Below are positions 1-12,708 of a DNA stretch of 64,000 nucleotides, piece after piece (the stretch's first letter is position 1; every line of letters begins with the position of its first letter). The stretch comes from an uncultured Chitinophagales bacterium (GTDB lineage: Bacteria; Bacteroidota; Bacteroidia; Chitinophagales; S012-47). The stretch covers positions 675 through 64,674 of the forward strand of contig CAYRDC010000015.1 of NCBI GenBank assembly GCA_964422925.1. Reading direction: 5' to 3'. The notes beneath the pieces are model-generated. The model did not search any database and had not been told where the DNA came from. It saw nothing but the letters and a program-made list of their open reading frames with translations. Both the position numbers and the translations under genes were made by a program.

Positions 1-854
1 ATGGCGGCATCTTCAAATATGATGTTGGCGGCTTTGCCGCCCAGTTCCAGGGTAACTTTTTTCCGGGTACCGGCTATGGCTTTCTGGATGATTTTGCCCA
101 CTTCGGTGGATCCCGTAAAGGCGATTTTGTCCACATCCGGGTGGTTCACTATGGCCGCCCCGGTATCGCCAAACCCGGTGACAATGTTGACCACACCGGG
201 CGGAAGGCCGCTTTCTTCAATGAGTTCGGCCAGTTTTAGGGCAGTGAGCGGGGTGGTCTCTGCCGGTTTCAGTACCACGGTGTTGCCCGTAGCCAGCGCG
301 GGGGCCAGTTTCCAGGCAGCCATCAGCAAAGGAAAATTCCAAGGAATGATCTGGCCGGCCACCCCTACCGGACGGGCTTTTCTTCCCGGGAAAGCGTATT
401 CAAGTTTATCCGCCCAGCCGGCATAATAGAAAAAGTGGGCGGCTGCCAGGGGAATGTCCACATCGCGCGATTCACGGATGGGCTTGCCCCCGTCCAGTGA
501 CTCGATCACGGCAAATTCGCGGGCCCGCTCCTGGATCATACGGGCGATGCGGTAAACATATTTACCCCTTTCCTTCGGGGAGAGTTTCTTCCAAACGTTT
601 TCATAAGCCTTGCGGGCCGCCTTAACCGCGCGGTCGACATCTGCCACAGACCCGCGGGCTACCCGCGCCAGCACTTCTTCATTGGCCGGATTAATGGTTT
701 CGAAATATTCTCCTTCAGCCGGCTTTACCCATTTGCCATTAATAAAATGGCCATATACCTTTTTCAGGGAGATATGATCGGTGCTTTCCGGGGCCGGAGC
801 ATATTCCCATTCGGTCTGAAACTGAAGAGACGGTGTTTTTTCCTTACTGGCCAT
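1..854 (-). CDS. Aldehyde dehydrogenase family protein, partial (3' end runs off the window start)
   Basis: Not in the ORF track. Manual minus-strand translation from ATG at 854: MASKEKTPSLQFQTEWEYAPAPES...IIPWNFPLLMAAWKLAPALATGNTVVLKPAE...KIAFTGSTEVG...VTLELGGK, i.e. ALDH cofactor-binding and catalytic-Glu motifs. Start overlaps the deoC stop (TAATG). Confidence 0.95.
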   Translation of the reverse strand, partial: MASKEKTPSLQFQTEWEYAPAPESTDHISLKKVYGHFINGKWVKPAEGEYFETINPANEEVLARVARGSVADVDRAVKAARKAYENVWKKLSPKERGKYVYRIARMIQERAREFAVIESLDGGKPIRESRDVDIPLAAAHFFYYAGWADKLEYAFPGRKARPVGVAGQIIPWNFPLLMAAWKLAPALATGNTVVLKPAETTPLTALKLAELIEESGLPPGVVNIVTGFGDTGAAIVNHPDVDKIAFTGSTEVGKIIQKAIAGTRKKVTLELGGKAANIIFEDAA

Positions 855-1771
855 TAGTCAATACTAAAGTAATTAATGCTTTGGTAAATGCCGGTTTCCT
901 GCTTTACGATTTGCATGAGCACATCATTAGCCAGGCTGCTGGCACCGAAGCGGAACAGTTCCGGTGTCATCCAATCCTGCCCCAGGGTTTCGCGCAGCAT
1001 CACCAGGTAATGCAGGGCCTGCTTGGCCTTGCGGATGCCTCCGGCCGGTTTCATCCCGGCTTTGTGCCCGGTTTCAAAGTAATAATCGCGGATCGCTTCC
1101 AGCATTACCAGGGTAACTTCCATGGTCGCGGCCGGGCTTACCTTTCCCGTGGAGGTTTTAATAAAATCGGCCCCGGCATGCAGGGCAATGTCACTGGCCC
1201 TGCGCACATTGTCAAGCGTGACCAGCTCACCGGTTTCAAGGATCACCTTCAGATGAGCAGGTCTGCAGGCTTCCTTTACCCGGGCAATTTCATCAAATAC
1301 ATAACTGTAATCGCCTTGCAGGAAGCGGCCGCGGGAAATAACCATGTCGATTTCATCGGCTCCTTCTTCAAGAGCATATCGTGCTTCCTGCACCTTAATA
1401 TCCATGTTGCTCATTCCGCTGGGGAAAGCGGTGGCTACACTGGCCACCTTGATGTCCGAACCCTCCAGCTCCTGCCTGGCTACCCTTACCATGGACGGGT
1501 AGACACACACGGCTGCCACCGTGGGCAGGCCGGGATAATCATCGTGCAGGTGCAATGCCTTGTAACACAATTGGCGCACCTTGCCCTGGGTGTCCTTCCC
1601 CTCCAGAGTAGTCAGATCAATCATGCCCAGCACCATCTTTAGCCCGTTAATTTTGCTTTGCTTTTTGATGCTGCGCTTACAGAACCGGGCTACCCGTTCC
1701 TGCACGGCTACCTGGTCAATCCTGCGGGATTGCCGGAAGTCAGGAATTATCGGGTTTGTGGCTTGTTTCAT
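854..1771 (-). CDS. deoC: Deoxyribose-phosphate aldolase
   Basis: IDLTTLEG, AAVCVYP, ASVATAFPSG, ADEIDMV, LKVILETGEL, DFIKTSTGK, KPAGGIR, FRFGASSL. ATG at 1771 preferred because the ORF-track start (1792) lies inside a TATATTTG promoter box. Confidence 0.95.
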   Translation of the reverse strand: MKQATNPIIPDFRQSRRIDQVAVQERVARFCKRSIKKQSKINGLKMVLGMIDLTTLEGKDTQGKVRQLCYKALHLHDDYPGLPTVAAVCVYPSMVRVARQELEGSDIKVASVATAFPSGMSNMDIKVQEARYALEEGADEIDMVISRGRFLQGDYSYVFDEIARVKEACRPAHLKVILETGELVTLDNVRRASDIALHAGADFIKTSTGKVSPAATMEVTLVMLEAIRDYYFETGHKAGMKPAGGIRKAKQALHYLVMLRETLGQDWMTPELFRFGASSLANDVLMQIVKQETGIYQSINYFSID

Positions 1772-1789
1772 GGATAGGATTTGCCTGTT

Positions 1790-1797
1790 CAAATATA
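1790..1797 (-). promoter_or_regulatory. Bacteroidota -7 promoter box (TATATTTG) for deoC-ALDH
   Basis: Exact TAnnTTTG match 18 nt upstream of the ATG. Confidence 0.6.
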
Positions 1798-2004
1798 CAA
1801 ATAATCACCCCCCTTGCCTGCCCCATCGCCCGCTGTTCCCCAGCGAAAACGCTCAAATCTGCCCTATTTTGAAAAGACAGAAATGTTCATTGTCTTAAAA
1901 AATAGATAAACAATTTGATACACATAATTAATAACAATTCTGTTAGCTGATTAGAATCATGTCTATAAGTGACAGAAGTCATATGAAAAGGGCAGGTGCG
2001 AGAA

Positions 2005-2012
2005 TACTTTTG
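2005..2012 (+). promoter_or_regulatory. Bacteroidota -7 promoter box (TACTTTTG) for the sqr operon
   Basis: Exact TAnnTTTG match 25 nt upstream of the ATG at 2038. Confidence 0.55.
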
Positions 2013-2037
2013 AATTGAACTTAAAAGCTGAAGCCTG

Positions 2038-3285
2038 ATGAAACAAATGCTGATTTTAGGAGGTGGGACGGGGGGGACCATAATGGCCAATAAATTTGCC
2101 AAAACCCTTGATCGCAGGGAATGGGAAATCACCGTAATTGACCGGGACCGGAATCACTATTACCAGCCCGGTTTTTTGTTTATCCCATTTGGAATTTATG
2201 GCAAGGACGATGTTGTAAAGCCAAAAGCCCGTTTTTTCACGCCTGAAGTAAACCTGTTGTTTGAGGAAGTCGAAAAAATTAAACCGGAAGAAAACCATAT
2301 AATACTGAAAAATGGCAAATCGGTTGCTTACGATATTCTGATCATTGCCACGGGGTCGAAAATCCAGCCTGAAGAAATCCCAGGGCTGAAAGATAAGCTT
2401 TGGAACAAAGATATTTTTAATTTCTATACGTATGAAGGTGCCCTGAAACTGGCCGAAAAATTCAGAAGGTGGGAAGGCGGCCGGCTGGTATTGAACGTGG
2501 CAGATATGCCCATTAAATGCCCGGTGGCCCCTCTGGAATTTGTATTCCTGGCCGATTGGTATTTCGATGAAGTGCGCCACATGCGCAACAAAGTGGAAAT
2601 TACTTATGTAACCCCGCTGGCCGGTGCTTTCACAAAGCCCAAGGCTACTAAAATGCTCAGCGGGTTGCTGGAAAAGAAAAACATTAATGTCATACCTGAT
2701 TTCTACCTGGAAAGGGTAGACAATGACCATAAAAAGCTGATTTCGTTTGACGAAAAAGAAGTGGAGTTTGATTTGTTGGTCAGTATACCGACTAACAAGG
2801 GGGATGATGTGATTGAACGTAGTGGGATGGGCGATGAGGATGAACTCAATTTTATCCCGACCGATAAGCACACCCTGCAATCGCCCGAGTATGAAAATGT
2901 GTTTGTGATCGGAGATGCCACCAATGTGCCTGCCTCCAAGGCGGGATCCGTAGTGCACTTTATGGCAGACATCCTTTATGAAAACGTGCTGAGTTATTTG
3001 GATGGCAGGCTATTGGAGGCCCGGTTTGACGGACATGCCAATTGTTTCATCGAAACCGGTTATGGAAAAGCGGCTCTTATAGATTTCAATTATGAAACCG
3101 AACCATTGCCCGGTAAGTATCCCCTGCCGGGTATAGGGCCGCTGGAATTGCTGGCCGAATCCAAAGCAAACCACTACGGTAAGCTGATGTTCCGCTGGTT
3201 GTACTGGCATATGCTGCTAAAAGACCGGCCCATTCCGATCGATTCCCATTTGTCCCTGGCTGGAAAAATTCTGGAAGATGCATGA
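2038..3285 (+). CDS. sqr: Sulfide:quinone oxidoreductase-like FAD oxidoreductase (probably type III)
   Basis: ILGGGTGG FAD motif, HYYQPGFLF, IIATGS, KCPVAPLEF and CFIETGYGKA cysteine motifs, VFVIGDA. Confidence 0.85.
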   Translation: MKQMLILGGGTGGTIMANKFAKTLDRREWEITVIDRDRNHYYQPGFLFIPFGIYGKDDVVKPKARFFTPEVNLLFEEVEKIKPEENHIILKNGKSVAYDILIIATGSKIQPEEIPGLKDKLWNKDIFNFYTYEGALKLAEKFRRWEGGRLVLNVADMPIKCPVAPLEFVFLADWYFDEVRHMRNKVEITYVTPLAGAFTKPKATKMLSGLLEKKNINVIPDFYLERVDNDHKKLISFDEKEVEFDLLVSIPTNKGDDVIERSGMGDEDELNFIPTDKHTLQSPEYENVFVIGDATNVPASKAGSVVHFMADILYENVLSYLDGRLLEARFDGHANCFIETGYGKAALIDFNYETEPLPGKYPLPGIGPLELLAESKANHYGKLMFRWLYWHMLLKDRPIPIDSHLSLAGKILEDA

Positions 3286-3997
3286 TGTAACTGCCATAAC
3301 CAATCATAAGGGCAGCGACCTGGGCAATCGGCTCGACCGCCTGGAACAAAAACTGGATACTATTCTTTTTGAAATCCAGCGGGAAAAAGCCCGGAATGAG
3401 TCGGCTGCCGATTTAGGTAAAGAGCTTTCTGTCGTTGCCAACGACCTGTTTCATTCCATAAGTGAAGAGCTTGACAAGCAGGGCGTGCAACTTTCTTTGA
3501 GCGATGTGAGCCGGTTGCTGATTGAGTTGATCCATAATCTTCCAGATATCATTGGATTACTCCGCTCGCTGGAAGAACTGAACGACCTATTGAAAGATGC
3601 CGGACCAATAGTCAATGATTTGTTCAAGTCAATGGTACCCAGACTGGATGAACTGGACCGGAAAGGATATTTTGAATTCTTCAGGGAAACAATTTCCATC
3701 ATCGATAATATCCTTTCCACATATTCAGCTAAAGATGTCAGGGAATTAGCTGACAATGTGGTAACAATACTGGAAACGGTGCGCAATATGACACAGCCGG
3801 ATATGCTTAAAGCAATGAACAATGGAATCCGGGTCTATAAGAACCTGGATACCCGCGACATACCGGAATATTCTCTTTGGAAAGCTTTACGTGAACTCAA
3901 CAGTCCTGAATTGAAGAAAGGCATTGGGTTCATGATTACTTTCCTGAAGAATATTGCCCGGGAAAGAGTAAATGGAGACGGAAAAAACATTACTTAA
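3278..3997 (+). CDS. DUF1641-domain protein
   Basis: Helical protein ending SLWKALRELNSPELKKGIGFMITFLKNI, the DUF1641-like C-terminal signature; overlaps the sqr stop by 8 nt. Confidence 0.75.
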   Translation: MHDVTAITNHKGSDLGNRLDRLEQKLDTILFEIQREKARNESAADLGKELSVVANDLFHSISEELDKQGVQLSLSDVSRLLIELIHNLPDIIGLLRSLEELNDLLKDAGPIVNDLFKSMVPRLDELDRKGYFEFFRETISIIDNILSTYSAKDVRELADNVVTILETVRNMTQPDMLKAMNNGIRVYKNLDTRDIPEYSLWKALRELNSPELKKGIGFMITFLKNIARERVNGDGKNIT

Positions 3998-4015
3998 CCC
4001 AAAAAACCCATTACC

Positions 4016-4327
4016 ATGACTGTAAAAACCATTGCCAACCTGAACCTGGAAGTAACCGATGAAGGATACCTGCTGGATCCTTCTCAATGGAACGAAGACA
4101 TAGCACGGGAAATAGCCCGCGAGCTGAACATTGAACTGACGGACAAGCACTGGGAGGTAATCCGCTATATCCGCGATCGCTTTGAAAAAGGCGAAGCGCT
4201 CAGCATCCGGAAAATCGGTAAATCCGGAATCGTGGATATTAAACAGTTCTACCAGCTGTTTCCGGGCGGGCCACTGAAAATGGCGACCAAAATTGCTGGT
4301 ATTCCGAAACCTGTCAGCTGTGTTTAA
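4016..4327 (+). CDS. TusE/DsrC-family sulfur relay protein (single C-terminal Cys)
   Basis: DEGYLLDPSQWNEDIA, LTDKHWEVIRYIR, LFPGGP, KIAGIPKPVSCV. Confidence 0.9.
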   Translation: MTVKTIANLNLEVTDEGYLLDPSQWNEDIAREIARELNIELTDKHWEVIRYIRDRFEKGEALSIRKIGKSGIVDIKQFYQLFPGGPLKMATKIAGIPKPVSCV

Positions 4328-4333
4328 AATGTT

Positions 4334-4897
4334 ATGTACCTAAAAACCAAGGCCATGGAAGATACATTAATGGAACCGGGCGTGGAATCCAAAGAAGCAC
4401 CCGGAAAAGAAAAACCACTGAAAAAAATATTGGTGATCTGTGCCAAGGGTAACCTGGAAGATGTATATGCAGCCCTGGTGCTGACCAATGGTGCATTGAT
4501 GGAGGGTATGGAGGCCAATATCTTCTTTACCTTTTTCGGACTGGATGCCATCACCAAAAAACGGATGGATAAGCTGCATACCGCCACTTTGGGCAATCCG
4601 GCCATGCGTATGCCAGGAGGGTTGCCTTTCCCGTCCATTTTAGGTATGCTTCCCGGTGTGGAAGCCGGTGTGTCGGCCATGATGAGAAAGGAGATGGAAA
4701 AACTGGATATCCCTCCGGTTAGTGAATTTCTGGAAATGATTAGTGCTGCCGGTGGAAAAATTTACGCCTGTAAACTGGCGGTAGACATGTTTAAACTGAA
4801 AAGGGAAGATTTTATTGATGACCTGGACGGCATCATTACCGTGGGCGAGATGTTCGCCCTGGCCGGTGGTGATGCCACACAGATTATTTTTGTTTAA
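4334..4897 (+). CDS. DsrE/DsrF-like (DsrE_2 type) sulfurtransferase
   Basis: ANIFFTFFGL, EFLEMISAAGGKIYACKLAVDMF, terminal IIFV. Confidence 0.85.
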   Translation: MYLKTKAMEDTLMEPGVESKEAPGKEKPLKKILVICAKGNLEDVYAALVLTNGALMEGMEANIFFTFFGLDAITKKRMDKLHTATLGNPAMRMPGGLPFPSILGMLPGVEAGVSAMMRKEMEKLDIPPVSEFLEMISAAGGKIYACKLAVDMFKLKREDFIDDLDGIITVGEMFALAGGDATQIIFV

Positions 4898-4949
4898 TCT
4901 CCACAAATTAAAACACACAAAAGCCGCACATTCTTTTCCTGTCACAATC

Positions 4950-5008
4950 GGGGATGCCTCTTTATATTAGGTTAGGTAATGGGCTTCAATTTCAATAGAG
5001 GCATCCCC
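4950..5008. repeat. 12-bp perfect inverted repeat with a 35-nt spacer
   Basis: GGGGATGCCTCT (4950-4961) / AGAGGCATCCCC (4997-5008). Confidence 0.9.
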
Positions 5009-5064
5009 ACCCACCTCTTTCTGAATTTTTTGATTTTCCAATTGATTAATTGCCGGTGAGGGCA

Positions 5065-5072
5065 TATATTTG
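5065..5072 (+). promoter_or_regulatory. -7 promoter box (TATATTTG) upstream of the putative 6S RNA
   Basis: Exact TAnnTTTG; TTG at 5042-5044 is 20 nt upstream. Confidence 0.55.
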
Positions 5073-5100
5073 AATCCGGATACTGTTCTTTAAAAAGTTT

Positions 5101-5295
5101 GTTGCCCGCGCTGGTCCATACTATTTGAGAAACTTAACACTATTCAATAGAAGACCTGTTCGCAGGAGCAAGAGCGGGCCCCAATCCGGCTTGCCGGATC
5201 CCGGAATCAGGGCAGGGGATACTCGACCTTCTGCGGCAACTTCAACCATGGCTATTTTGAGGTTTTCTTCAAACTCAATGGATGCGCGGGCTTTT
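5101..5295 (+). ncRNA. ssrS: Putative 6S RNA (Bacteroidota type)
   Basis: End-to-end rod: 5104-5111 pairs with 5284-5291; 5124-5135 with 5259-5273 (bulged); 5161-5168 with 5228-5235; apical hairpin 5184-5199; unpaired central bubble; followed by a 10-nt T run. Length ~190 nt. Confidence 0.7.
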
Positions 5296-5531
5296 TTTTT
5301 TGATAATTTGCCCGTTTTCTTCCACCTTCCGCACTTAAAATTTCATTAAAATTTCCACAGAATTTCACATCAGGCACTTGCATTATCCAAATGCTGACAA
5401 TGTATAAATAACTGGATTTTAGAAAATCCGAATAGATACATTGAGCGCATCCTTAAAGTATTATAAATCCCGTCCAGCTATTTTAATGATTTGTTAATAA
5501 AGGTTTCGTTGGCTCGAGCCCTGATTCCATT

Positions 5532-5539
5532 TACATTTG
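5532..5539 (+). promoter_or_regulatory. -7 promoter box (TACATTTG) for the TonB-dependent receptor
   Basis: Exact TAnnTTTG 19 nt upstream of the ATG at 5559. Confidence 0.6.
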
Positions 5540-5558
5540 CCTCAAAATCACCATTGCT

Positions 5559-8345
5559 ATGAAAAGATTACTGACCTTTATGATGAGCGCTTTGCTTGCG
5601 GTAGGTGTATTCGCCCAGGGCGGAACCATCAGCGGCAAAGTAATTGACAAAGAAACCGGTGAAACGCTGGTTGGTGCCAATGTGGTTATCAAAGGCACAC
5701 CAAGGGGTACTGCTACGGATGTCAATGGGCAGTTTACCTTGAAAAATGTTCCGGATGGAGCTGAAATCATGGCTTCCATGCTGGGGTATGAAGCTGTGAC
5801 AAAGCCCGCAGCTCCACAGATGATCTTTGAACTGGCTCCTTCAGCTACTGAACTCAGTGAATTGGAGATCGTAGCCGATCGTTCCTCCCGGGAAGCCCCG
5901 TTTGCTTTCACTTATCTGAAAAAAGAAGATGTCACGAACCGACTGGGCAGTCGTGATCTTCCGCTTGTTTTGAACAACACGCCCTCGATTTATGCTACCA
6001 ACCAGGGTGGCGGGGCTGGTGACGCACGGATTAATGTGCGCGGGTTTAACCAGCGTAATGTGGCTATTATGATTAACGGGGTCCCGGTAAACGATATGGA
6101 AAACGGATGGGTTTACTGGTCCAACTGGGATGGTATTGGCGATGCCACTTCTTCCATCCAGGTGCAGCGCGGGCTCAGTTCCGTAAACCTGGCAGTTCCT
6201 TCCATCGGTGGCACGCTGAATATTATCACTGATCCGGCCGGAAAAGTACAGGGTGCTTCCGTAAAACAGGAATTTGGTTCCTGGAACTTTAAGAAAACCA
6301 CCATTACCCTGAATTCCGGCCTGATTAATGACAAATTTGCCATCAGCGGGTCGATTGTACGCAAAACCGGTGACGGGTTCTATGAAGGGACCTACACGGA
6401 TGCCTGGGCCTATTACCTGGGTATGTCTTACAAGGCCGGTAAAAAGGACAAATTTGAACTCTTTGCCATTGGCGCTCCGCAAAAGCACGGGCAAAACCTT
6501 TACAAACAAAATATTGCTACCTACAGCCATGCTTTCGCGGAAAGCCTCAGTGACTACGACCCTGCGGCCCTGGATAAATTCCAGGAAGCCGGGCGTACGT
6601 TTAACCAAAACTACGGGACAGTGGATCCTACCTATAGAGGTAAACAGTCCTATGGCATGTATCAATATTTCAGCCATGTGGACCGTTCCAGCCCGTATTT
6701 TATTCTTGAACGGGAGAACTTCTTCCACAAGCCCCAGGTAAACCTGAACTGGTACCACACTTTCAGCGACCGTATGCAATGGGCTACCATCGCCTATTGG
6801 AGCGGTGGCCATGGCGGAGGTGCCGGAACCTATGGCAAACTGTACCGCAGGGATGCCAACGGCAACCTGGGCGACAACGATTACAAATTCTATTACGGAC
6901 CATCTCCCTGGCGCTGGGACTGGAATGCTACCATTGCCATGAACCAGGCCAATGCCGATACCTTCTGGATTGACAAAAAGCCTTACTGGAAAGAAGACCA
7001 GCAAAGTATCGGAATCCTTCGAGCCAGCCGCAACAATCAATGGACCCTTGGGGCTATTTCGAAACTTTACTACGATGTGACCGACAATTTCAAGACAGTA
7101 ATTGGAATTGACTGGCGAACGGCCCAGATCGATCACTTCCGTGAAGTGCGTGACCTGCTGGGTGGTAACTATTTCGTGTTCAAAGGCAATGACTTTGATA
7201 CCGATTCCGCCTCATGGAATAAACAGCTGGGCGACATCATCGATTATCATTTCACCAATACAGTTGACTGGTTTGGCGCTTATGTCCAGGGTCAATATGA
7301 AACATCCAACCTGAGCGCCTATCTGATGTTGGGCTGGAACACGATTGGTTACACTTACACAAACCATTTTGTGAACGCGGCCAATGATCCCAATGCTACC
7401 GCCAATGACAAAGGTGAACTGTATGCTGAAAGCAAAGGGCATATGGGTTACCAGGTCAAAGGCGGCCTGATGTACCACTTCAATGAAAACTTCGGCATTT
7501 TCGCCAATGGCGGCCTGATATCGAAAACACCCATTTTTGACGCGGTGATCAACGACCGGACAGCCACGGTATATCCCAATCCTAGAAACGAGCGCTTCCG
7601 TTCGTTTGAAAGCGGGGTTGACGCCACGCTGCTGAATGGTGACCTGACGGCCAAGATCGGATATTACAATACTACTTGGATGGACCGTACCCAGATTCTT
7701 ATAACCAACAATCAGGACGGTACCGATGGATTCATCTTCCTGACGGGGATGAACGCCAACCACGCGGGCATTGAAATAGAAAGTGCCTGGCAACCCTGCC
7801 GCCAATTCCGCCTGGACGCTGCCGCGAGTTTCGGCAACTGGCACATGATTGACGATGTTAGCGGAACTTATACCACTTGGGAACCGGATACAGCCGGTAA
7901 CCTGGTGGAAACCACCAAGGATTATAACTACTATGTGAAGGACCTGAAAGTGGGAGATGCTCCGCAAACCCAGATTGCCCTGGCGCCCACGGTTTATCCG
8001 TCCAACAGTTTGAGCATCCAGCTGGTGTATCGCTATTATGCCAATAACTACGCAAACTGGGATCCCTTCAGCCGTACGAATGAAACCGACCGCACGCAAA
8101 GCTGGAAAGCGCCAAATTATGGTGTGGTTGACATGCATGTTAATTATATCCTGCCTGTTAGCATTGAAGGTATGCAGGTGGAAACCTTCCTCCACGTATT
8201 CAACTTGTTGAATAATGTGTATATCCAGGATGCCGTGGACAACAGCCGGTATAATGCATTTGACGGCAACCATACGGCTGATGACGCGGAAGTGTTCTTT
8301 GGACTGCCCCGGAATTTTAATGCTGGCTTCAGGGTTCGCTTCTAA
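5559..8345 (+). CDS. TonB-dependent receptor with an N-terminal carboxypeptidase-regulatory-like domain
   Basis: Signal peptide, ISGKVIDKETGETLVGANV, plug motif INVRGFNQRNVAIMINGVPVND, C-terminal RNFNAGFRVRF. Confidence 0.92.
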   Translation: MKRLLTFMMSALLAVGVFAQGGTISGKVIDKETGETLVGANVVIKGTPRGTATDVNGQFTLKNVPDGAEIMASMLGYEAVTKPAAPQMIFELAPSATELSELEIVADRSSREAPFAFTYLKKEDVTNRLGSRDLPLVLNNTPSIYATNQGGGAGDARINVRGFNQRNVAIMINGVPVNDMENGWVYWSNWDGIGDATSSIQVQRGLSSVNLAVPSIGGTLNIITDPAGKVQGASVKQEFGSWNFKKTTITLNSGLINDKFAISGSIVRKTGDGFYEGTYTDAWAYYLGMSYKAGKKDKFELFAIGAPQKHGQNLYKQNIATYSHAFAESLSDYDPAALDKFQEAGRTFNQNYGTVDPTYRGKQSYGMYQYFSHVDRSSPYFILERENFFHKPQVNLNWYHTFSDRMQWATIAYWSGGHGGGAGTYGKLYRRDANGNLGDNDYKFYYGPSPWRWDWNATIAMNQANADTFWIDKKPYWKEDQQSIGILRASRNNQWTLGAISKLYYDVTDNFKTVIGIDWRTAQIDHFREVRDLLGGNYFVFKGNDFDTDSASWNKQLGDIIDYHFTNTVDWFGAYVQGQYETSNLSAYLMLGWNTIGYTYTNHFVNAANDPNATANDKGELYAESKGHMGYQVKGGLMYHFNENFGIFANGGLISKTPIFDAVINDRTATVYPNPRNERFRSFESGVDATLLNGDLTAKIGYYNTTWMDRTQILITNNQDGTDGFIFLTGMNANHAGIEIESAWQPCRQFRLDAAASFGNWHMIDDVSGTYTTWEPDTAGNLVETTKDYNYYVKDLKVGDAPQTQIALAPTVYPSNSLSIQLVYRYYANNYANWDPFSRTNETDRTQSWKAPNYGVVDMHVNYILPVSIEGMQVETFLHVFNLLNNVYIQDAVDNSRYNAFDGNHTADDAEVFFGLPRNFNAGFRVRF

Positions 8346-8362
8346 GTATAAACACCAAGCCA

Positions 8363-8404
8363 TGAAAGAGAGAAAGCCGCGAATTCGCGGCTTTCTCTCT
8401 TTCA
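8363..8404. terminator. Perfect 42-bp palindrome, probable bidirectional terminator
   Basis: TGAAAGAGAGAAAGCCGCGAA|TTCGCGGCTTTCTCTCTTTCA between convergent genes. Confidence 0.8.
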
Positions 8405-8761
8405 GTTGCACTGCTGCAACTTAAAACCGAGGAGATGGTAATACTGGTAATCCTCTAGGTATGTGGGTGAGGCTTTATCCAAGCTCTTTAATGCCTGCAG
8501 GCAGTAACTCCTGGCAAGACGGTATTGCCCGTTTTCTTCCTTGATCTGGGCCAGGAATCCATAGATATCCGGTAACAGGTTGCTTGATTCCAGACGTGCC
8601 TGACGCAAAGCCAGCCGGGCGGTCTGCTGGGCATGTAATTTCAGACCGGCATTGTACAGCCGGATGGCTTCTGAAAAAAAATATTGACTGGTTGCTGATG
8701 GTTCCCGGGAGTGTATTACCTTCAGTACCGGGGCTTCCAATTGTTTTGCTGCGTTCATCAT
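8402..8761 (-). CDS. Hypothetical TPR-like helical protein downstream of the WYL regulator
   Basis: 119 aa; helix pairs EAIRLYNAG...ARLAL and IYGFLAQIKEENGQYRLARSYCLQAL; has its own -7 box. Confidence 0.65.
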   Translation of the reverse strand: MMNAAKQLEAPVLKVIHSREPSATSQYFFSEAIRLYNAGLKLHAQQTARLALRQARLESSNLLPDIYGFLAQIKEENGQYRLARSYCLQALKSLDKASPTYLEDYQYYHLLGFKLQQCN

Positions 8762-8778
8762 GTTATAACTTTTGAACC

Positions 8779-8812
8779 CAAAGCTATAGGGGAAGAACGC
8801 AGCCTATTTGCG
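8779..8812 (-). promoter_or_regulatory. -7 box TAGCTTTG (8779-8786) plus inverted repeat CGCA-N7-TGCG (8798-8812), candidate WYL binding site
   Basis: Both motifs read directly in the 93-bp gap between the WYL gene and the TPR-like gene. Confidence 0.5.
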
Positions 8813-8854
8813 GTCAGGATTTTTTTTGGAAGGTCATCTAAAAGATATGCCGCA

Positions 8855-9865
8855 TTAAAGGTCTTTGTACCTGGTTAATGTCTTTTCCAAAGTTTTCCGG
8901 ATCTCCCTGGCAAACCAGTCAGGCGATTCTACCTTTACCGAAGGGCCGTAACCGAGTATTAGCATTCTGAGCTCCACGGTGGGATATACCCTGATTGTAA
9001 CCTTGAATACTTCCTGATTGTCTTCCAGTATTTCCTGGGTGTGGTGTAAAGGCTGGGTTTTCAGGTATTCGCCCTGGATGGGCGTGAAGCTCAGGACAAT
9101 ATCCACCGGGTCTCCGTCATAGGTGGTGATTCCAATAGCGTAGCGGAAGTATTCTTCCGGTTCAAAGCCTGCGTGGCTGCGCCATGGTATCTCCGCTTCT
9201 TCCAGCAAGCTGATGCGGTCTAACCCGTAGGTGAGTATGACCTCGCGTCTGTCGTGCATGCCAACCAGGTACCACCGGTTGCGGTATTCTTTCAGAAGGT
9301 ATGGGTGCACGGTATGCAGTTTGGGAATGTCCCGGTCGAAACGTTTGTACTGAAACTGTACGGTTTTTCGCTGTTGTATGGCTTCCAGCAAGGGTCCGAT
9401 CCATTCGCGCCCTTTCTGGTAGGGCACCTGTTCGAACCGGATCACGGGTTCGCTGCCTTCTTCCAGCACCCGGCTCAGGTTCACGGCCTCCATGATTTTG
9501 TCCACCGCGTTGCTGTATTGCCTGAAAATGGTAATGTCCCGGAACTGTTCGAGCACCGCGGCCGCAAACCAGATCGATTTTATATCGTGTTCATTCAGGG
9601 GAATGGAAGCGATGGTGTAGTTAGGGTCTTCATAGTAGTACCCGTCATGCGCTTTGCTGTACCGGATAGGTGCCAGGTATCCCAGGGCGTTGTCTTCCCG
9701 CATGGCTTTGATGTCCTTTTGAATGGTGGACACCGAGAATTCTTTGCCCAGTTTTTCTTCCATTACCTCGCGCAAACGTTCCATGGACGGATAGGGGTGG
9801 TATTTGTTGCGCAGGCAACTGTCAATGATCCGGTACCGGATCAAGGCTTCCTTGTTTTTGGGCAT
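8855..9865 (-). CDS. WYL-domain transcriptional regulator (wHTH-WYL-WCX)
   Basis: N-terminal HTH (SVSTIQKDIKAMR), PYLLKEYRNRWYLVG, YGLDRISLL, C-terminal LRMLILGYGPSVKVESP. Confidence 0.92.
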   Translation of the reverse strand: MPKNKEALIRYRIIDSCLRNKYHPYPSMERLREVMEEKLGKEFSVSTIQKDIKAMREDNALGYLAPIRYSKAHDGYYYEDPNYTIASIPLNEHDIKSIWFAAAVLEQFRDITIFRQYSNAVDKIMEAVNLSRVLEEGSEPVIRFEQVPYQKGREWIGPLLEAIQQRKTVQFQYKRFDRDIPKLHTVHPYLLKEYRNRWYLVGMHDRREVILTYGLDRISLLEEAEIPWRSHAGFEPEEYFRYAIGITTYDGDPVDIVLSFTPIQGEYLKTQPLHHTQEILEDNQEVFKVTIRVYPTVELRMLILGYGPSVKVESPDWFAREIRKTLEKTLTRYKDL

Positions 9866-9979
9866 GGCTGTTTGTATGGTTTTGTGGCGGAATATATTCT
9901 CCGCTTATCTGCTTTAAGCGGCTTTAGGACATAAAGTTTTAATTTTGGCGTTAATTCTGAAAACGGAAAACAAACTTTT

Positions 9980-10657
9980 ATGAAAAAACTCATTATTTTT
10001 TGTTTCTGCCTCTTTTTTTCTGTTTCCCTGTGGAGCCAGATCAAGGGCAGCAGCGATCGCTATGTGATGGAAATTAACTGGAATTACTGGTTAAACGCTC
10101 CGCAGGATATACAGGTAAAACCTTTCAGCCGCGGTTTCAATACGTTTGTCATGTTTGATTTCCCGTTTAAGGAAAAATCGCATTTCAGCGTAGCCCTGGG
10201 ACCGGGGTTGAGTTCTGAGAATGTTTATCATAATGGCCGGTTTATAAATACTGACACCACCACCCAACTGGTACCTATCAACGACAGCATTAAATATAAG
10301 CGTAATAAGCTCAATACAAACTATCTGGAAGCGCCCTTGGAGTTTCGCTTTCGTACCAAGCCCCTGGTGAAAAGCTACCGGCTGAAAATTGCCGTTGGGT
10401 TGCGGGGCGGAATGCTTATTTCCAGCCATATCAAATTTATCGGACAGGGGACGGCTTTCGGACAGCCTGGGGATAATGTCAAAATCAAGGAATACAAGGT
10501 GCCCAACCTGGCTAAATACCGTTACGGGTTAACGGCCCGTGTGGGTTTTGGCCCTTTCAATTTTATCGGCTATTACGGTCTCAGTACCCTCTTTGACCAG
10601 GGGCTTGGGCCGGCCATTGTTCCTGTGTCCATTGGCTTTACTTTTAACATGCTATAG
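9980..10657 (+). CDS. Outer-membrane beta-barrel (porin-family) protein
   Basis: Signal peptide, alternating beta strands, YLEAPLEFRFR, YRYGLTARVGF. Confidence 0.8.
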   Translation: MKKLIIFCFCLFFSVSLWSQIKGSSDRYVMEINWNYWLNAPQDIQVKPFSRGFNTFVMFDFPFKEKSHFSVALGPGLSSENVYHNGRFINTDTTTQLVPINDSIKYKRNKLNTNYLEAPLEFRFRTKPLVKSYRLKIAVGLRGGMLISSHIKFIGQGTAFGQPGDNVKIKEYKVPNLAKYRYGLTARVGFGPFNFIGYYGLSTLFDQGLGPAIVPVSIGFTFNML

Positions 10658-10681
10658 AAAGCCGTATTTTTTTACTTGCAG

Positions 10682-10707
10682 GGAGGCTTTGCAGGCCTCC
10701 TTTTTTT
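10682..10707 (+). terminator. Rho-independent terminator
   Basis: GGAGGC-TTTGCAG-GCCTCC followed by T7. Confidence 0.55.
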
Positions 10708-10714
10708 GCATTCT

Positions 10715-11473
10715 ATGCAGGAGAAACCCAAAAATCAGAAACCCGGTATCCGGCTCAACAAGTTCCTCGCGCACGGGGGCGTAGCCTCCAGGCGCAAGGC
10801 CGATGAACTGATCCGGGCCGGGAAAGTGACCGTGAACGGCAAGACGGTGACCGAAATGGGTTACCTCGTGCAGCCGGGCGATCAGATTACCTGCAACGGG
10901 AAACCTGTCCGGGGCGAGCGCTTTGTGTATATTCTTATGAATAAACCTAAAGACTTTCTCTGTACCCGGTCTGATGAAAAAGGCCGCAAAACCGTAATTG
11001 ACCTGTTGCATGGTCGCATCCGCGAAAGGGTTTACCCCGTGGGGCGTCTAGACCGCAATACCACCGGCCTGCTTTTGCTGACCAATGACGGTGACCTGGC
11101 TCAGCGCCTTGCCCATCCTTCGGGCCGGGTTGAGAAACTCTACCATGTGCGCCTGGACCGTGATTTGGCTCCGGAAGACCTCGAAGCTATCCGGGCCGGG
11201 CTGGAACTGGAAGACGGCTTTATCCGGGTCGACCAGGTTGACTATGTGGCCGGTGCGCCACCCAACGAAGTGGGGGTCCGCCTCCACAGCGGGCGCAATC
11301 GCATCATAAGGCGTATTTTTGAACACCTGGGTTATCGCGTCAAAGCGCTTGACCGCGTGAAATATGCCGGCCTGACCAAAAAAGACCTGCCGCGGGGTAA
11401 ATGGCGCCTGCTGGCTTCCCGAGAAATCGGGTTCCTGAAACAACAGGCCGGGAATAAATCCAAGACCAAATGA
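10715..11473 (+). CDS. rluB: rRNA pseudouridine synthase with S4 domain (RluB/RsuA family)
   Basis: RLNKFLAHGGVASRRKAD S4 domain, VGRLDRNTTGLLLLTNDG, GRNRIIRR. Confidence 0.85.
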   Translation: MQEKPKNQKPGIRLNKFLAHGGVASRRKADELIRAGKVTVNGKTVTEMGYLVQPGDQITCNGKPVRGERFVYILMNKPKDFLCTRSDEKGRKTVIDLLHGRIRERVYPVGRLDRNTTGLLLLTNDGDLAQRLAHPSGRVEKLYHVRLDRDLAPEDLEAIRAGLELEDGFIRVDQVDYVAGAPPNEVGVRLHSGRNRIIRRIFEHLGYRVKALDRVKYAGLTKKDLPRGKWRLLASREIGFLKQQAGNKSKTK

Positions 11474-12708
11474 AAAGAGCAACTTTTTACCTGTCACTGC
11501 TGATACTCGCAGCTTGTCAATCCGGGAATAAGCATCCGCAACCGGGCCTCCTGCGAACCGGGTCTTGGCATGCCACACTCAACGCCCCGGGGGTAACCAT
11601 TCCTTTTGATGTGCGCGTGGAACAGGCGGACTCGGCCTTTGTGTTTCATATCCTCAACGCGGCAGAAGATATACCTGCTGAACAGGTCATCGTGGATTCC
11701 GATTCGGTGCACATTATCCTGCCGGTTTTTGATTCCCGCTGGAACCTGGCCCGCGTCAACGATTCCCTGCTCAGCGGTACCTGGCTCAAATACAGCCGGT
11801 ACAAGCCATACACTATGGATATCCGCCTCGAGGCGGGAGAAAAACCCCGTTTCCCGGTTTCGGACCCTGAACCCAGAGTTGACTTTTCAGGCGACTGGAG
11901 GACTGTTTTCAGCCCCGATAACATCGAAGATACTTACATGGCCCTGGGCCGGTTTTCCCAGGAGGACAGCCATATTACTGGCACTTTCCTCACTACCACG
12001 GGCGATTACCGTTTCCTCGAAGGTACCGTGCAGGGCGACAGTCTCTTTTTAAGTTGCTTTGACGGCTCCCATGCCTTCCTCTTCAAAGCCAGGCTTCAAA
12101 ACGATACCATCTACGGCCGTTTCTGGTCCGGCAAGCACTGGGAGGAACCCTGGATTGCCTGGAAGGAACCCGGCTACCGGCTTCCGGATCCGGATTCCCT
12201 CACTTTCCTGAAACCCGGCTACGACCATATCGACTTTACCCTTCCCGACCTGGACAGCAACCTCGTGAGCCTTCACGATGAAGCTTTCCGCGATAAGGTG
12301 ATTGTCCTGCAGATCATGGGCACCTGGTGCCCCAACTGCATGGATGAAACTGCCTTTATGTCGGAGTATTACAACGCCCATCCCTCCGATGACCTGGTAT
12401 TCATCGGTCTGGCGTTTGAGCGCACCAATACTTTTTCGCAGGCGGTGGATAATGTCAGACGGCTCATTCAGCGCTTTGATATCCGATATCCCATTTTGCT
12501 GGCCGGCTTTCCCTCCCGCGACCGGATCAATGAAGTGCTACCCATGATCGATCATTTCATGAGCTATCCCACTTCCATCTTTATCGACCGGGAAGGCCGC
12601 GTCAGGCGTATCCATACGGGATTTGCCGGCCCCGCCACGGGCAATGACTTCGAAATCTTTAAAAAGGAATTTGACGAGCTGATCCGTGAAATGCTCGGAA
12701 CATCCTGA
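11470..12708 (+). CDS. TlpA/redoxin-family disulfide reductase lipoprotein
   Basis: Lipobox LAAC, C-terminal MGTWCPNC, YPTSIFIDREG. Confidence 0.85.
   Translation: MKRATFYLSLLILAACQSGNKHPQPGLLRTGSWHATLNAPGVTIPFDVRVEQADSAFVFHILNAAEDIPAEQVIVDSDSVHIILPVFDSRWNLARVNDSLLSGTWLKYSRYKPYTMDIRLEAGEKPRFPVSDPEPRVDFSGDWRTVFSPDNIEDTYMALGRFSQEDSHITGTFLTTTGDYRFLEGTVQGDSLFLSCFDGSHAFLFKARLQNDTIYGRFWSGKHWEEPWIAWKEPGYRLPDPDSLTFLKPGYDHIDFTLPDLDSNLVSLHDEAFRDKVIVLQIMGTWCPNCMDETAFMSEYYNAHPSDDLVFIGLAFERTNTFSQAVDNVRRLIQRFDIRYPILLAGFPSRDRINEVLPMIDHFMSYPTSIFIDREGRVRRIHTGFAGPATGNDFEIFKKEFDELIREMLGTS

Follow-up and report, generated by a model that had tools for sequence, protein, structure and literature searches.

The window analysed here, a stretch of 64,000 nucleotides (nt) from an uncultured Chitinophagales bacterium, carries four co-oriented genes that appear to belong to the chemistry of sulfide. 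The first encodes a sulfide:quinone oxidoreductase (SQR), the second a protein with a DUF1641 domain, and the last two encode small proteins of the TusE/DsrC and DsrE families. The open reading frames (ORFs) and the lengths of their products in amino acids (aa) are as follows.

2038-3285, + strand: type III SQR ORF, Cys form, 415 aa
3278-3997, + strand: DUF1641 (PF07849) ORF, ForE/YjgD-like, 239 aa
4016-4327, + strand: TusE/DsrC-family ORF with a single Cys, 103 aa
4334-4897, + strand: DsrE2-like (DrsE_2) ORF, 187 aa

The SQR and DUF1641 ORFs overlap by 8 nt, which couples them translationally, and the following genes are separated by 18 and 6 nt. These coordinates agree exactly with an original prediction made for this DNA from its letters, and hidden Markov model (HMM) searches bore out all four of the family assignments that it had made. 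It is fairly likely that the four genes make up one operon for sulfide oxidation at the cytoplasmic face of the inner membrane. No transmembrane helices were seen in any of the four proteins, and the SQR has no signal peptide.

The SQR scores 642.1 bits with the NCBIfam model of type III SQRs (NF049943, cut-off 525), over model positions 1-405 of 406. It has a Pyr_redox_2 match and an N-terminal GGGTGG motif for flavin adenine dinucleotide (FAD), starting at residue 7. Its only two Cys are Cys161 (in KCPVAPLEF) and Cys336 (in CFIETG). Both motifs had been pointed out in the original prediction, and both residues prove to be invariant among 105 orthologues and to line up with the active-site Cys pair of human SQOR, to which the search for solved structures gave its best match (E about 1e-41; 2.5e-41). 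The name of the NF049943 model includes the words “selenoprotein subtype”, but the window gene contains no in-frame stop and encodes Cys at both catalytic positions, which makes it a Cys form; in-frame stops are likewise missing from all 98 above-cut-off NF049943 matches in a 401-genome sample of the phylum. Towards the C-terminus, the SQR has an amphipathic helix, NHYGKLMFRWLYWHMLLKG, that aligns with a helix of human SQOR. The idea that SQRs linked to a DUF1641 gene have lost this membrane helix was rejected, since it is conserved in linked and unlinked enzymes alike.

The two small proteins each offer one conserved Cys. The TusE/DsrC-family protein matches PF04358 with 104 bits and the model of the TusE/DsrC/DsvC subfamily (TIGR03342) with 88.2 bits against a threshold of 53.5. 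Its sole Cys, Cys102, is the penultimate residue and forms the only Cys column, and an invariant one, in 101 orthologues. The position of the second Cys of DsrC is taken by Thr91, which aligns with CysB of DsrC from A. fulgidus (Archaeoglobus; 1sau), and this column is free of Cys in all 101 orthologues. The early description of the protein as having only the penultimate Cys, with Thr at the second position, is thereby confirmed, and it does not qualify as a two-Cys DsrC. The DsrE2-like protein matches PF13686 (DrsE_2) with 100.8 bits against 25. Among solved structures, the DsrE2B protein 2qs7 comes closest (E = 1.4e-14, two aligned blocks); compared with 2qs7, the DsrE2-like protein carries an inserted hydrophobic stretch, rich in Pro and Gly, that is conserved. 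Its Cys146, in the sequence YACK, is present in 100% of 88 orthologues and lines up with the Cys of 2qs7. What DsrE2A-type proteins do has been described as unclear (PMC11094781).

The DUF1641 protein contains no Cys at all. The Pfam domain itself (PF07849) is matched with 29.5 bits, against a gathering score of 21, at the C-terminal residues 199-226. A profile of the family (profile A1) also detects ForE1/YjgD (PDB 8rqz) with E = 4.4e-5 over about 120 residues, aligning profile positions 105-224 with residues 33-158 of the 8rqz chain and including the head domain, so that the homology exceeds the 39-residue Pfam domain. The family profile was needed for this match; a PDB search with the single sequence gave chance matches to syntaxin only. 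PF07849 is named “HMP” in the precomputed Pfam annotation of loci L127 and L128 and DUF1641 in the copy of Pfam that was searched, and seems to have been renamed later.

The same four genes recur in a fixed order. When the DUF1641 family profile was run over species-representative genomes, at least 509 loci were found, of which 80 were kept for comparison. The order SQR-DUF1641-TusE-DsrE2 is found in all 80 (73 complete and 7 cut by contig ends), and the taxon labels are Bacteroidota throughout, except for two “Chlorobiota”. Among the carriers of the module are a Carboxylicivirga isolate and metagenome-assembled genomes labelled Draconibacterium and Mariniphaga. An arrangement that is identical in 80 of 80 loci is far beyond chance, and the co-occurrence of the four genes is thus a conserved one. 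In the closest relative, locus L127, the SQR is 77% identical and both the genes and their surroundings are the same: an aldehyde dehydrogenase gene and deoC on one side, and genes for a TonB receptor and a WYL regulator on the other.

The 401-genome sample gives a wider view of the phylum. Genomes were counted as SQR carriers if they had a match above the NF049943 cut-off. There are 98 of these, while 107 genomes have a DsrC-family gene and 96 have both, counts that take no account of phylogeny. A single family, f25, with genomes of 2-3 Mb, accounts for 58 of the 98 carriers. Outside f25, the DsrC-family gene lies directly 3' of the SQR gene and on the same strand in all 40 carriers. The distance between the two is 37-209 nt in 28 of these genomes, and in the other 12 there is a slot of 724-836 nt. 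A profile search of the 401 genomes placed the DUF1641 subfamily in exactly those 12, always in the SQR-TusE slot and nowhere else, and DsrE2 follows TusE in all 17 of the three-gene loci that were examined. Because DUF1641 is present in just 12 of 40 carriers, the conserved core is SQR-TusE-DsrE2, and DUF1641 is a recurrent add-on. The original view of the four genes as one unit therefore stands for the 80 related loci but not for the phylum, where the unit has three genes.

A quick tree of the SQRs, used to ask whether DUF1641 linkage arose once, divides the linked enzymes among at least two or three groups; it requires two changes for the DUF1641-linked label and three for all three labels jointly. 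The window SQR, with a long terminal branch (0.44), joins the tree at the base of the largest group. At locus L016 (G016:C1 759488-760012), the DUF1641 gene matches profile positions 3-177 only and has a TGA codon in frame; perhaps this copy is decaying towards the three-gene form.

Family f25 resembles the window in having an SQR above the NF049943 cut-off with a DsrC-family gene nearby. However, this gene encodes a true two-Cys DsrC and belongs to a dsrN-dsrC-dsrA-dsrB cluster, and there is no DsrE2 or DUF1641 gene in the slot. The SQR gene is followed by dsrN, dsrC, dsrA and dsrB at locus L124 (G242:C25, 1177-6950) and also at L020, L022 and L030; in another f25 genus it is followed by thiS-thiG-thiH. 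The f25 arrangement indicates that SQR is tied to DsrC-family genes even under a different relay. Given the dsrNCAB genes and the genome size of 2-3 Mb, f25 probably represents the green sulfur bacteria, a group that GTDB assigns to Bacteroidota.

What the DUF1641 protein might do is suggested by its characterised relatives. In Bacillus subtilis, menaquinone binding and the formate:menadione activity of ForC both depend on ForE (YjgD), which also influences the structural integrity of ForC (PMC8808070). Ncp (YjlC) and the NDH-2 enzyme Ndh form tubes that sequester and transport menaquinone (PMC13524794, 2026). The same paper assigns to the DUF1641 superfamily, with HucM, ForE and Ncp as members, a conserved role in scaffolding, membrane attachment and quinone transport. 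It reports DUF1641 proteins in 5,479 genomes and the Ndh-Ncp pair in 684, all of them Bacillota, and the accessible part of its main text makes no mention of SQR as a partner. The label “uncharacterised”, which the original prediction had given to DUF1641, is thus outdated: three members, HucM, ForE and Ncp, act as scaffolds that transport quinones (PMC13524794, PMC8808070).

The window protein is like those of the Ndh-Ncp, ForCE and Huc systems in being a small DUF1641 protein, predicted to be helical and without transmembrane helices, whose gene lies beside that of a quinone-reducing enzyme and is translated together with it. SQR and NDH-2, the partner of Ncp, belong to the same flavoprotein superfamily. 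Unlike these systems, the partner here is an SQR that retains its own membrane helix, and the DUF1641 protein is longer than the known scaffolds, its 239 aa including an N-terminal coiled-coil-like extension. In addition, Ndh-Ncp is stated to be exclusive to Bacillota (PMC13524794), whereas the module of the window is found in Bacteroidota. The suggestion that DUF1641 might act as a membrane adaptor for SQR has gained a concrete and testable mechanism from HucM, ForE and Ncp, but it is weakened by the presence of the gene in only 12 of 40 carriers.

A different role, unrelated to quinone, is conceivable: the DUF1641 protein might keep SQR and the sulfur carriers together, as a structural bridge or chaperone, or it might stabilise SQR. 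The position of the gene between those for SQR and TusE would suit such a bridge, as would the fact that SQR has a membrane and quinone helix of its own, that 28 of 40 carriers manage without DUF1641, and that ForE affects the integrity of ForC as well as its quinone binding (PMC8808070). On the other hand, all the characterised partners of DUF1641 proteins are quinone-reducing enzymes (PMC13524794), the homology to ForE spans about 120 residues with the head domain included, and the window protein contains no Cys. A bridge or chaperone is therefore considered unlikely, and a quinone-related scaffold remains the preferred role.

The rest of the genome bears on the fate of the sulfur. The assembly comprises 2.72 Mb and is 96% complete, and it has one SQR gene. 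A whole-genome search showed that the DsrC-family, DsrE-family and DUF1641 genes of the module are the only ones of their kind. A PF02635 search aimed at TusBCD found the DsrE2-like gene of the module alone in the whole genome, and there are no matches to the dsrA model TIGR02064. The absence of dsrAB and tusBCD, originally noted for the window, thus extends to the whole genome as far as the dsrA and PF02635 searches reach. No convincing candidate for TusA was seen in this genome and no cytochrome bd, but two heme-copper oxidases are encoded. Ten rhodanese domains are present, two of them within a 462-aa fusion with a metallo-beta-lactamase (MBL) fold that lies outside the window on another contig (C11:35409-37550) and is followed by two small rhodaneses. 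The HMM scores of the fusion are weak (GloB-like, 55 bits; Blh, 39 bits), and it is a weak candidate for a persulfide dioxygenase that could act downstream of SQR.

Since the genome has no TusBCD-like gene, the TusE-like protein is not the TusE that works with TusBCD in tRNA thiolation. The case that had been named as fatal to the sulfide relay, a TusE serving only tRNA thiolation alongside a genomic tusBCD, accordingly does not apply. A broader version of the idea is that both small proteins are biosynthetic carriers, taking sulfane sulfur from SQR to thiolated tRNA, thiamine or molybdopterin rather than into detoxification or energy metabolism. TusE of E. coli is a carrier for tRNA thiolation, the orthologous SQR gene adjoins thiS-thiG-thiH in some f25 genomes, and the genome of the window has no other DsrE or DsrC carriers. 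Apart from the missing TusBCD, the score with the TusE equivalog model (NF008562; 73.5 bits, cut-off 191) speaks against a housekeeping TusE, and so does the distribution of the gene, which accompanies SQR in 40 of 40 carriers but hardly ever occurs where SQR is missing. A purely biosynthetic destination is for these reasons improbable, and a relay serving sulfide oxidation is preferred.

Of the systems described so far, the SQR-TusA-DsrE2 operon of Methylacidiphilum fumariolicum SolV (MFUM_v2_0219-0221; PMC10205796) comes nearest. It encodes a type III SQR, a TusA homologue and DsrE2, is upregulated 1.7-fold in sulfide-adapted cells and has been proposed to oxidise H2S to sulfur; type III is described in the same paper as the least-known type of SQR. 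In both operons, the gene for a type III SQR precedes those for a small Cys sulfur carrier and for a protein of the DsrE2 type. In the window, however, the carrier is a single-Cys protein of the TusE/DsrC family instead of TusA, DUF1641 is inserted after SQR, and the phylum is Bacteroidota. The TusE/DsrC-type carrier and the DUF1641 insert are what is new relative to the Methylacidiphilum precedent. Among the papers searched, none was found that pairs SQR with a DUF1641 scaffold or describes the four-gene combination.

The two carriers have a second parallel in TusBCD-TusE of E. coli and DsrEFH-DsrC of Allochromatium vinosum, in which DsrE-family proteins are likewise combined with a DsrC/TusE-family protein whose active Cys is the penultimate residue (PMC3397948, PMC11094781). 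Unlike those systems, the module has one DsrE2-type gene rather than three genes of the DsrE/F/H type, has neither an MnmA-linked TusBCD nor DsrAB, and would have SQR as its sulfur donor.

A third comparison is with the human enzyme. Human SQOR passes its sulfane sulfur to small acceptors, for example glutathione or sulfite, whereas the operon in the window encodes dedicated protein carriers. In other respects SQOR (type II; PDB 6oi5, 8dhk) is similar, sharing both catalytic Cys and the amphipathic helices at the C-terminus.

These comparisons suggest how the system might work. SQR would face the cytoplasm and oxidise H2S on Cys161 and Cys336. Two electrons would pass by way of its FAD to menaquinone, and the resulting quinol could be re-oxidised by the heme-copper oxidases of the genome. 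By analogy with ForE, Ncp and HucM and their enzymes, the DUF1641 protein and SQR would most likely form a stoichiometric complex, in which the Cys-free DUF1641 protein serves as a scaffold that improves or relocates the access of SQR to membrane quinone. The sulfane sulfur would leave SQR as a protein persulfide on Cys146 of the DsrE2-like protein and Cys102 of the TusE-like protein, the two of them acting as a minimal analogue of TusBCD-TusE and DsrEFH-DsrC. Such protein carriers may replace the small-molecule acceptors used by the related type II SQRs, and the sulfur might, for instance, end up with the MBL-rhodanese fusion that is encoded elsewhere in the genome. The relay from SQR to TusE and DsrE had already been proposed in the original prediction. 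It is favoured by the protein families, by the gene order in 80 of 80 loci and by the lack of dsrA and TusBCD-like genes, but its composition has a near-precedent in the Methylacidiphilum operon (PMC10205796).

The module also appears to have a regulator of its own in many genomes. Its transcription is probably controlled by an FNR-like regulator of the Crp family that has three invariant Cys and binds TGAT-N4-ATCA boxes, as judged from conserved sequences upstream of SQR. Three elements precede the SQR gene of the window, the last of which follows TAnnTTTG, the consensus of the Bacteroidota promoter -7 element.

1948..1959, + strand: FNR/CRP-type box 1, TGATTAGAATCA, motif TGA[TC]N4[GA]TCA; kept in L127
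1970..1981, + strand: FNR/CRP-type box 2, TGACAGAAGTCA; kept as TGACCCCTGTCA in L127
2005..2012, + strand: Bacteroidota-type promoter -7 element, TACTTTTG (TAnnTTTG); conserved in L127

Both boxes are conserved in L127, while their flanks diverge. The motif TGA[TC]N4[GA]TCA occurs upstream of SQR in 55 of 73 loci, compared with a mean of 1.4 and a maximum of 6 in shuffled sequences. In 37 cases, the box starts 46 nt ahead of the TAnnTTTG element, and in 13 cases there is a second box 16 nt farther upstream. A divergent gene for a Crp/Fnr-family regulator is present in 57 of the 80 four-gene loci, at a median of about 140 nt from SQR (range -97 to 325), and its product has three invariant Cys: C10 and C13, which form a CxxC motif, and C111. 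The box is found in 52 of the 57 loci that have the regulator and in 3 of the 16 that do not. In the window, the distances from the starts of the two boxes to the -7 element are 57 and 35 nt, or 46 plus and minus 11 nt, which we read as preserving the helical phase. In a second clade of four-gene loci (L004-L008, L011), the divergent FNR-like regulator is replaced by one of the MerR family, with 140-163 aa and a Cys-rich C-terminal domain. Its gene lies about 20-30 nt upstream of SQR on the + strand, in the same orientation.

A further reading concerns the direction of the reaction. If the regulator senses O2, anaerobic expression would be suggested, and flavoproteins of the same superfamily are known to reduce persulfides, so that the enzyme might work in reverse or accept a different substrate, as a persulfide or polysulfide reductase that depends on quinol or a carrier and is supplied with sulfur by TusE and DsrE2; this is very unlikely, as the cut-off of the type III SQR model is exceeded by a wide margin, the catalytic Cys pair equals that of human SQOR, and type III SQRs are reported to oxidise H2S and reduce quinone, with an SQR gene that is induced by H2S (PMC10205796).

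With sulfide oxidation as the preferred direction, a more specific proposal can be put forward tentatively. The type III SQR and its DUF1641 partner would represent a fourth class of DUF1641 quinone conduits besides Huc, ForCE and Ndh-Ncp, with DsrE2 and TusE docked as acceptors in place of small thiols and an FNR-like switch controlling expression.

Several observations weigh against the scheme of sulfide oxidation set out above. Profile A1 detects ForE alone, and neither Ncp nor HucM. The AlphaFold2 monomer of the DUF1641 protein (from a 42-row alignment) is all-helical, but its predicted local distance difference test (pLDDT) score is 56.8, and a Foldseek search of the PDB with this model of low score returned nothing at E <= 0.001. 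The DUF1641-linked SQRs retain their amphipathic helix, whereas Ndh linked to Ncp lacks key residues for membrane interaction, and the absence of DUF1641 from 28 of the 40 carriers means that SQR functions without it in most lineages. The TusE-like protein scores far below the cut-off of the TusE equivalog, as given above, and the DsrE2-like protein also falls short of its own equivalog model (NF047629; 103 bits, cut-off 210). The co-occurrence counts, as noted, are uncorrected for phylogeny. Finally, the window has no regulator gene next to the module, where deoC is found upstream instead, and the best homologue of the regulator in the genome, on another contig, is only 30% identical, although it is FNR-like and has the same Cys pattern.

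The pairing of SQR with two Cys carriers offers a testable answer to the question of how type III enzymes dispose of their sulfane sulfur, namely on protein persulfide acceptors. The DUF1641 partner would tie sulfide oxidation to a group of quinone-transporting scaffolds that the accessible literature on them has so far linked to hydrogenase, formate dehydrogenase and NDH-2. If true, this would be the first quinone-conduit complex for a sulfur enzyme, and it would be found in the Gram-negative Bacteroidota. The three-gene and four-gene versions (28 and 12 genomes in one sample of the phylum) provide a natural comparison for the contribution of the scaffold, and the FNR-like regulator with its box at a fixed position is a candidate sensor of oxygen or reactive sulfur in Bacteroidota.

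Some minor features of the loci may be added. A scan of positions 1-12000 of the window, a region that includes 5065-5301, gave no matches to Rfam families at the gathering thresholds. Genes of the YeeE/YedE family (Sulf_transp) have no homologue in the genome of the window by tblastn. In 13-14 of the loci L034-L113, a pair of half-size YeeE/YedE genes and a gene for a membrane-anchored rhodanese are found upstream of the module, for example in L094 (405-938), L082 (2358-2954) and L044 (1938-2567). The module (2038-4897) has a G+C content of 45.8%, below that of the window (48.9%) and of the adjoining 2-kb bins (about 52%).

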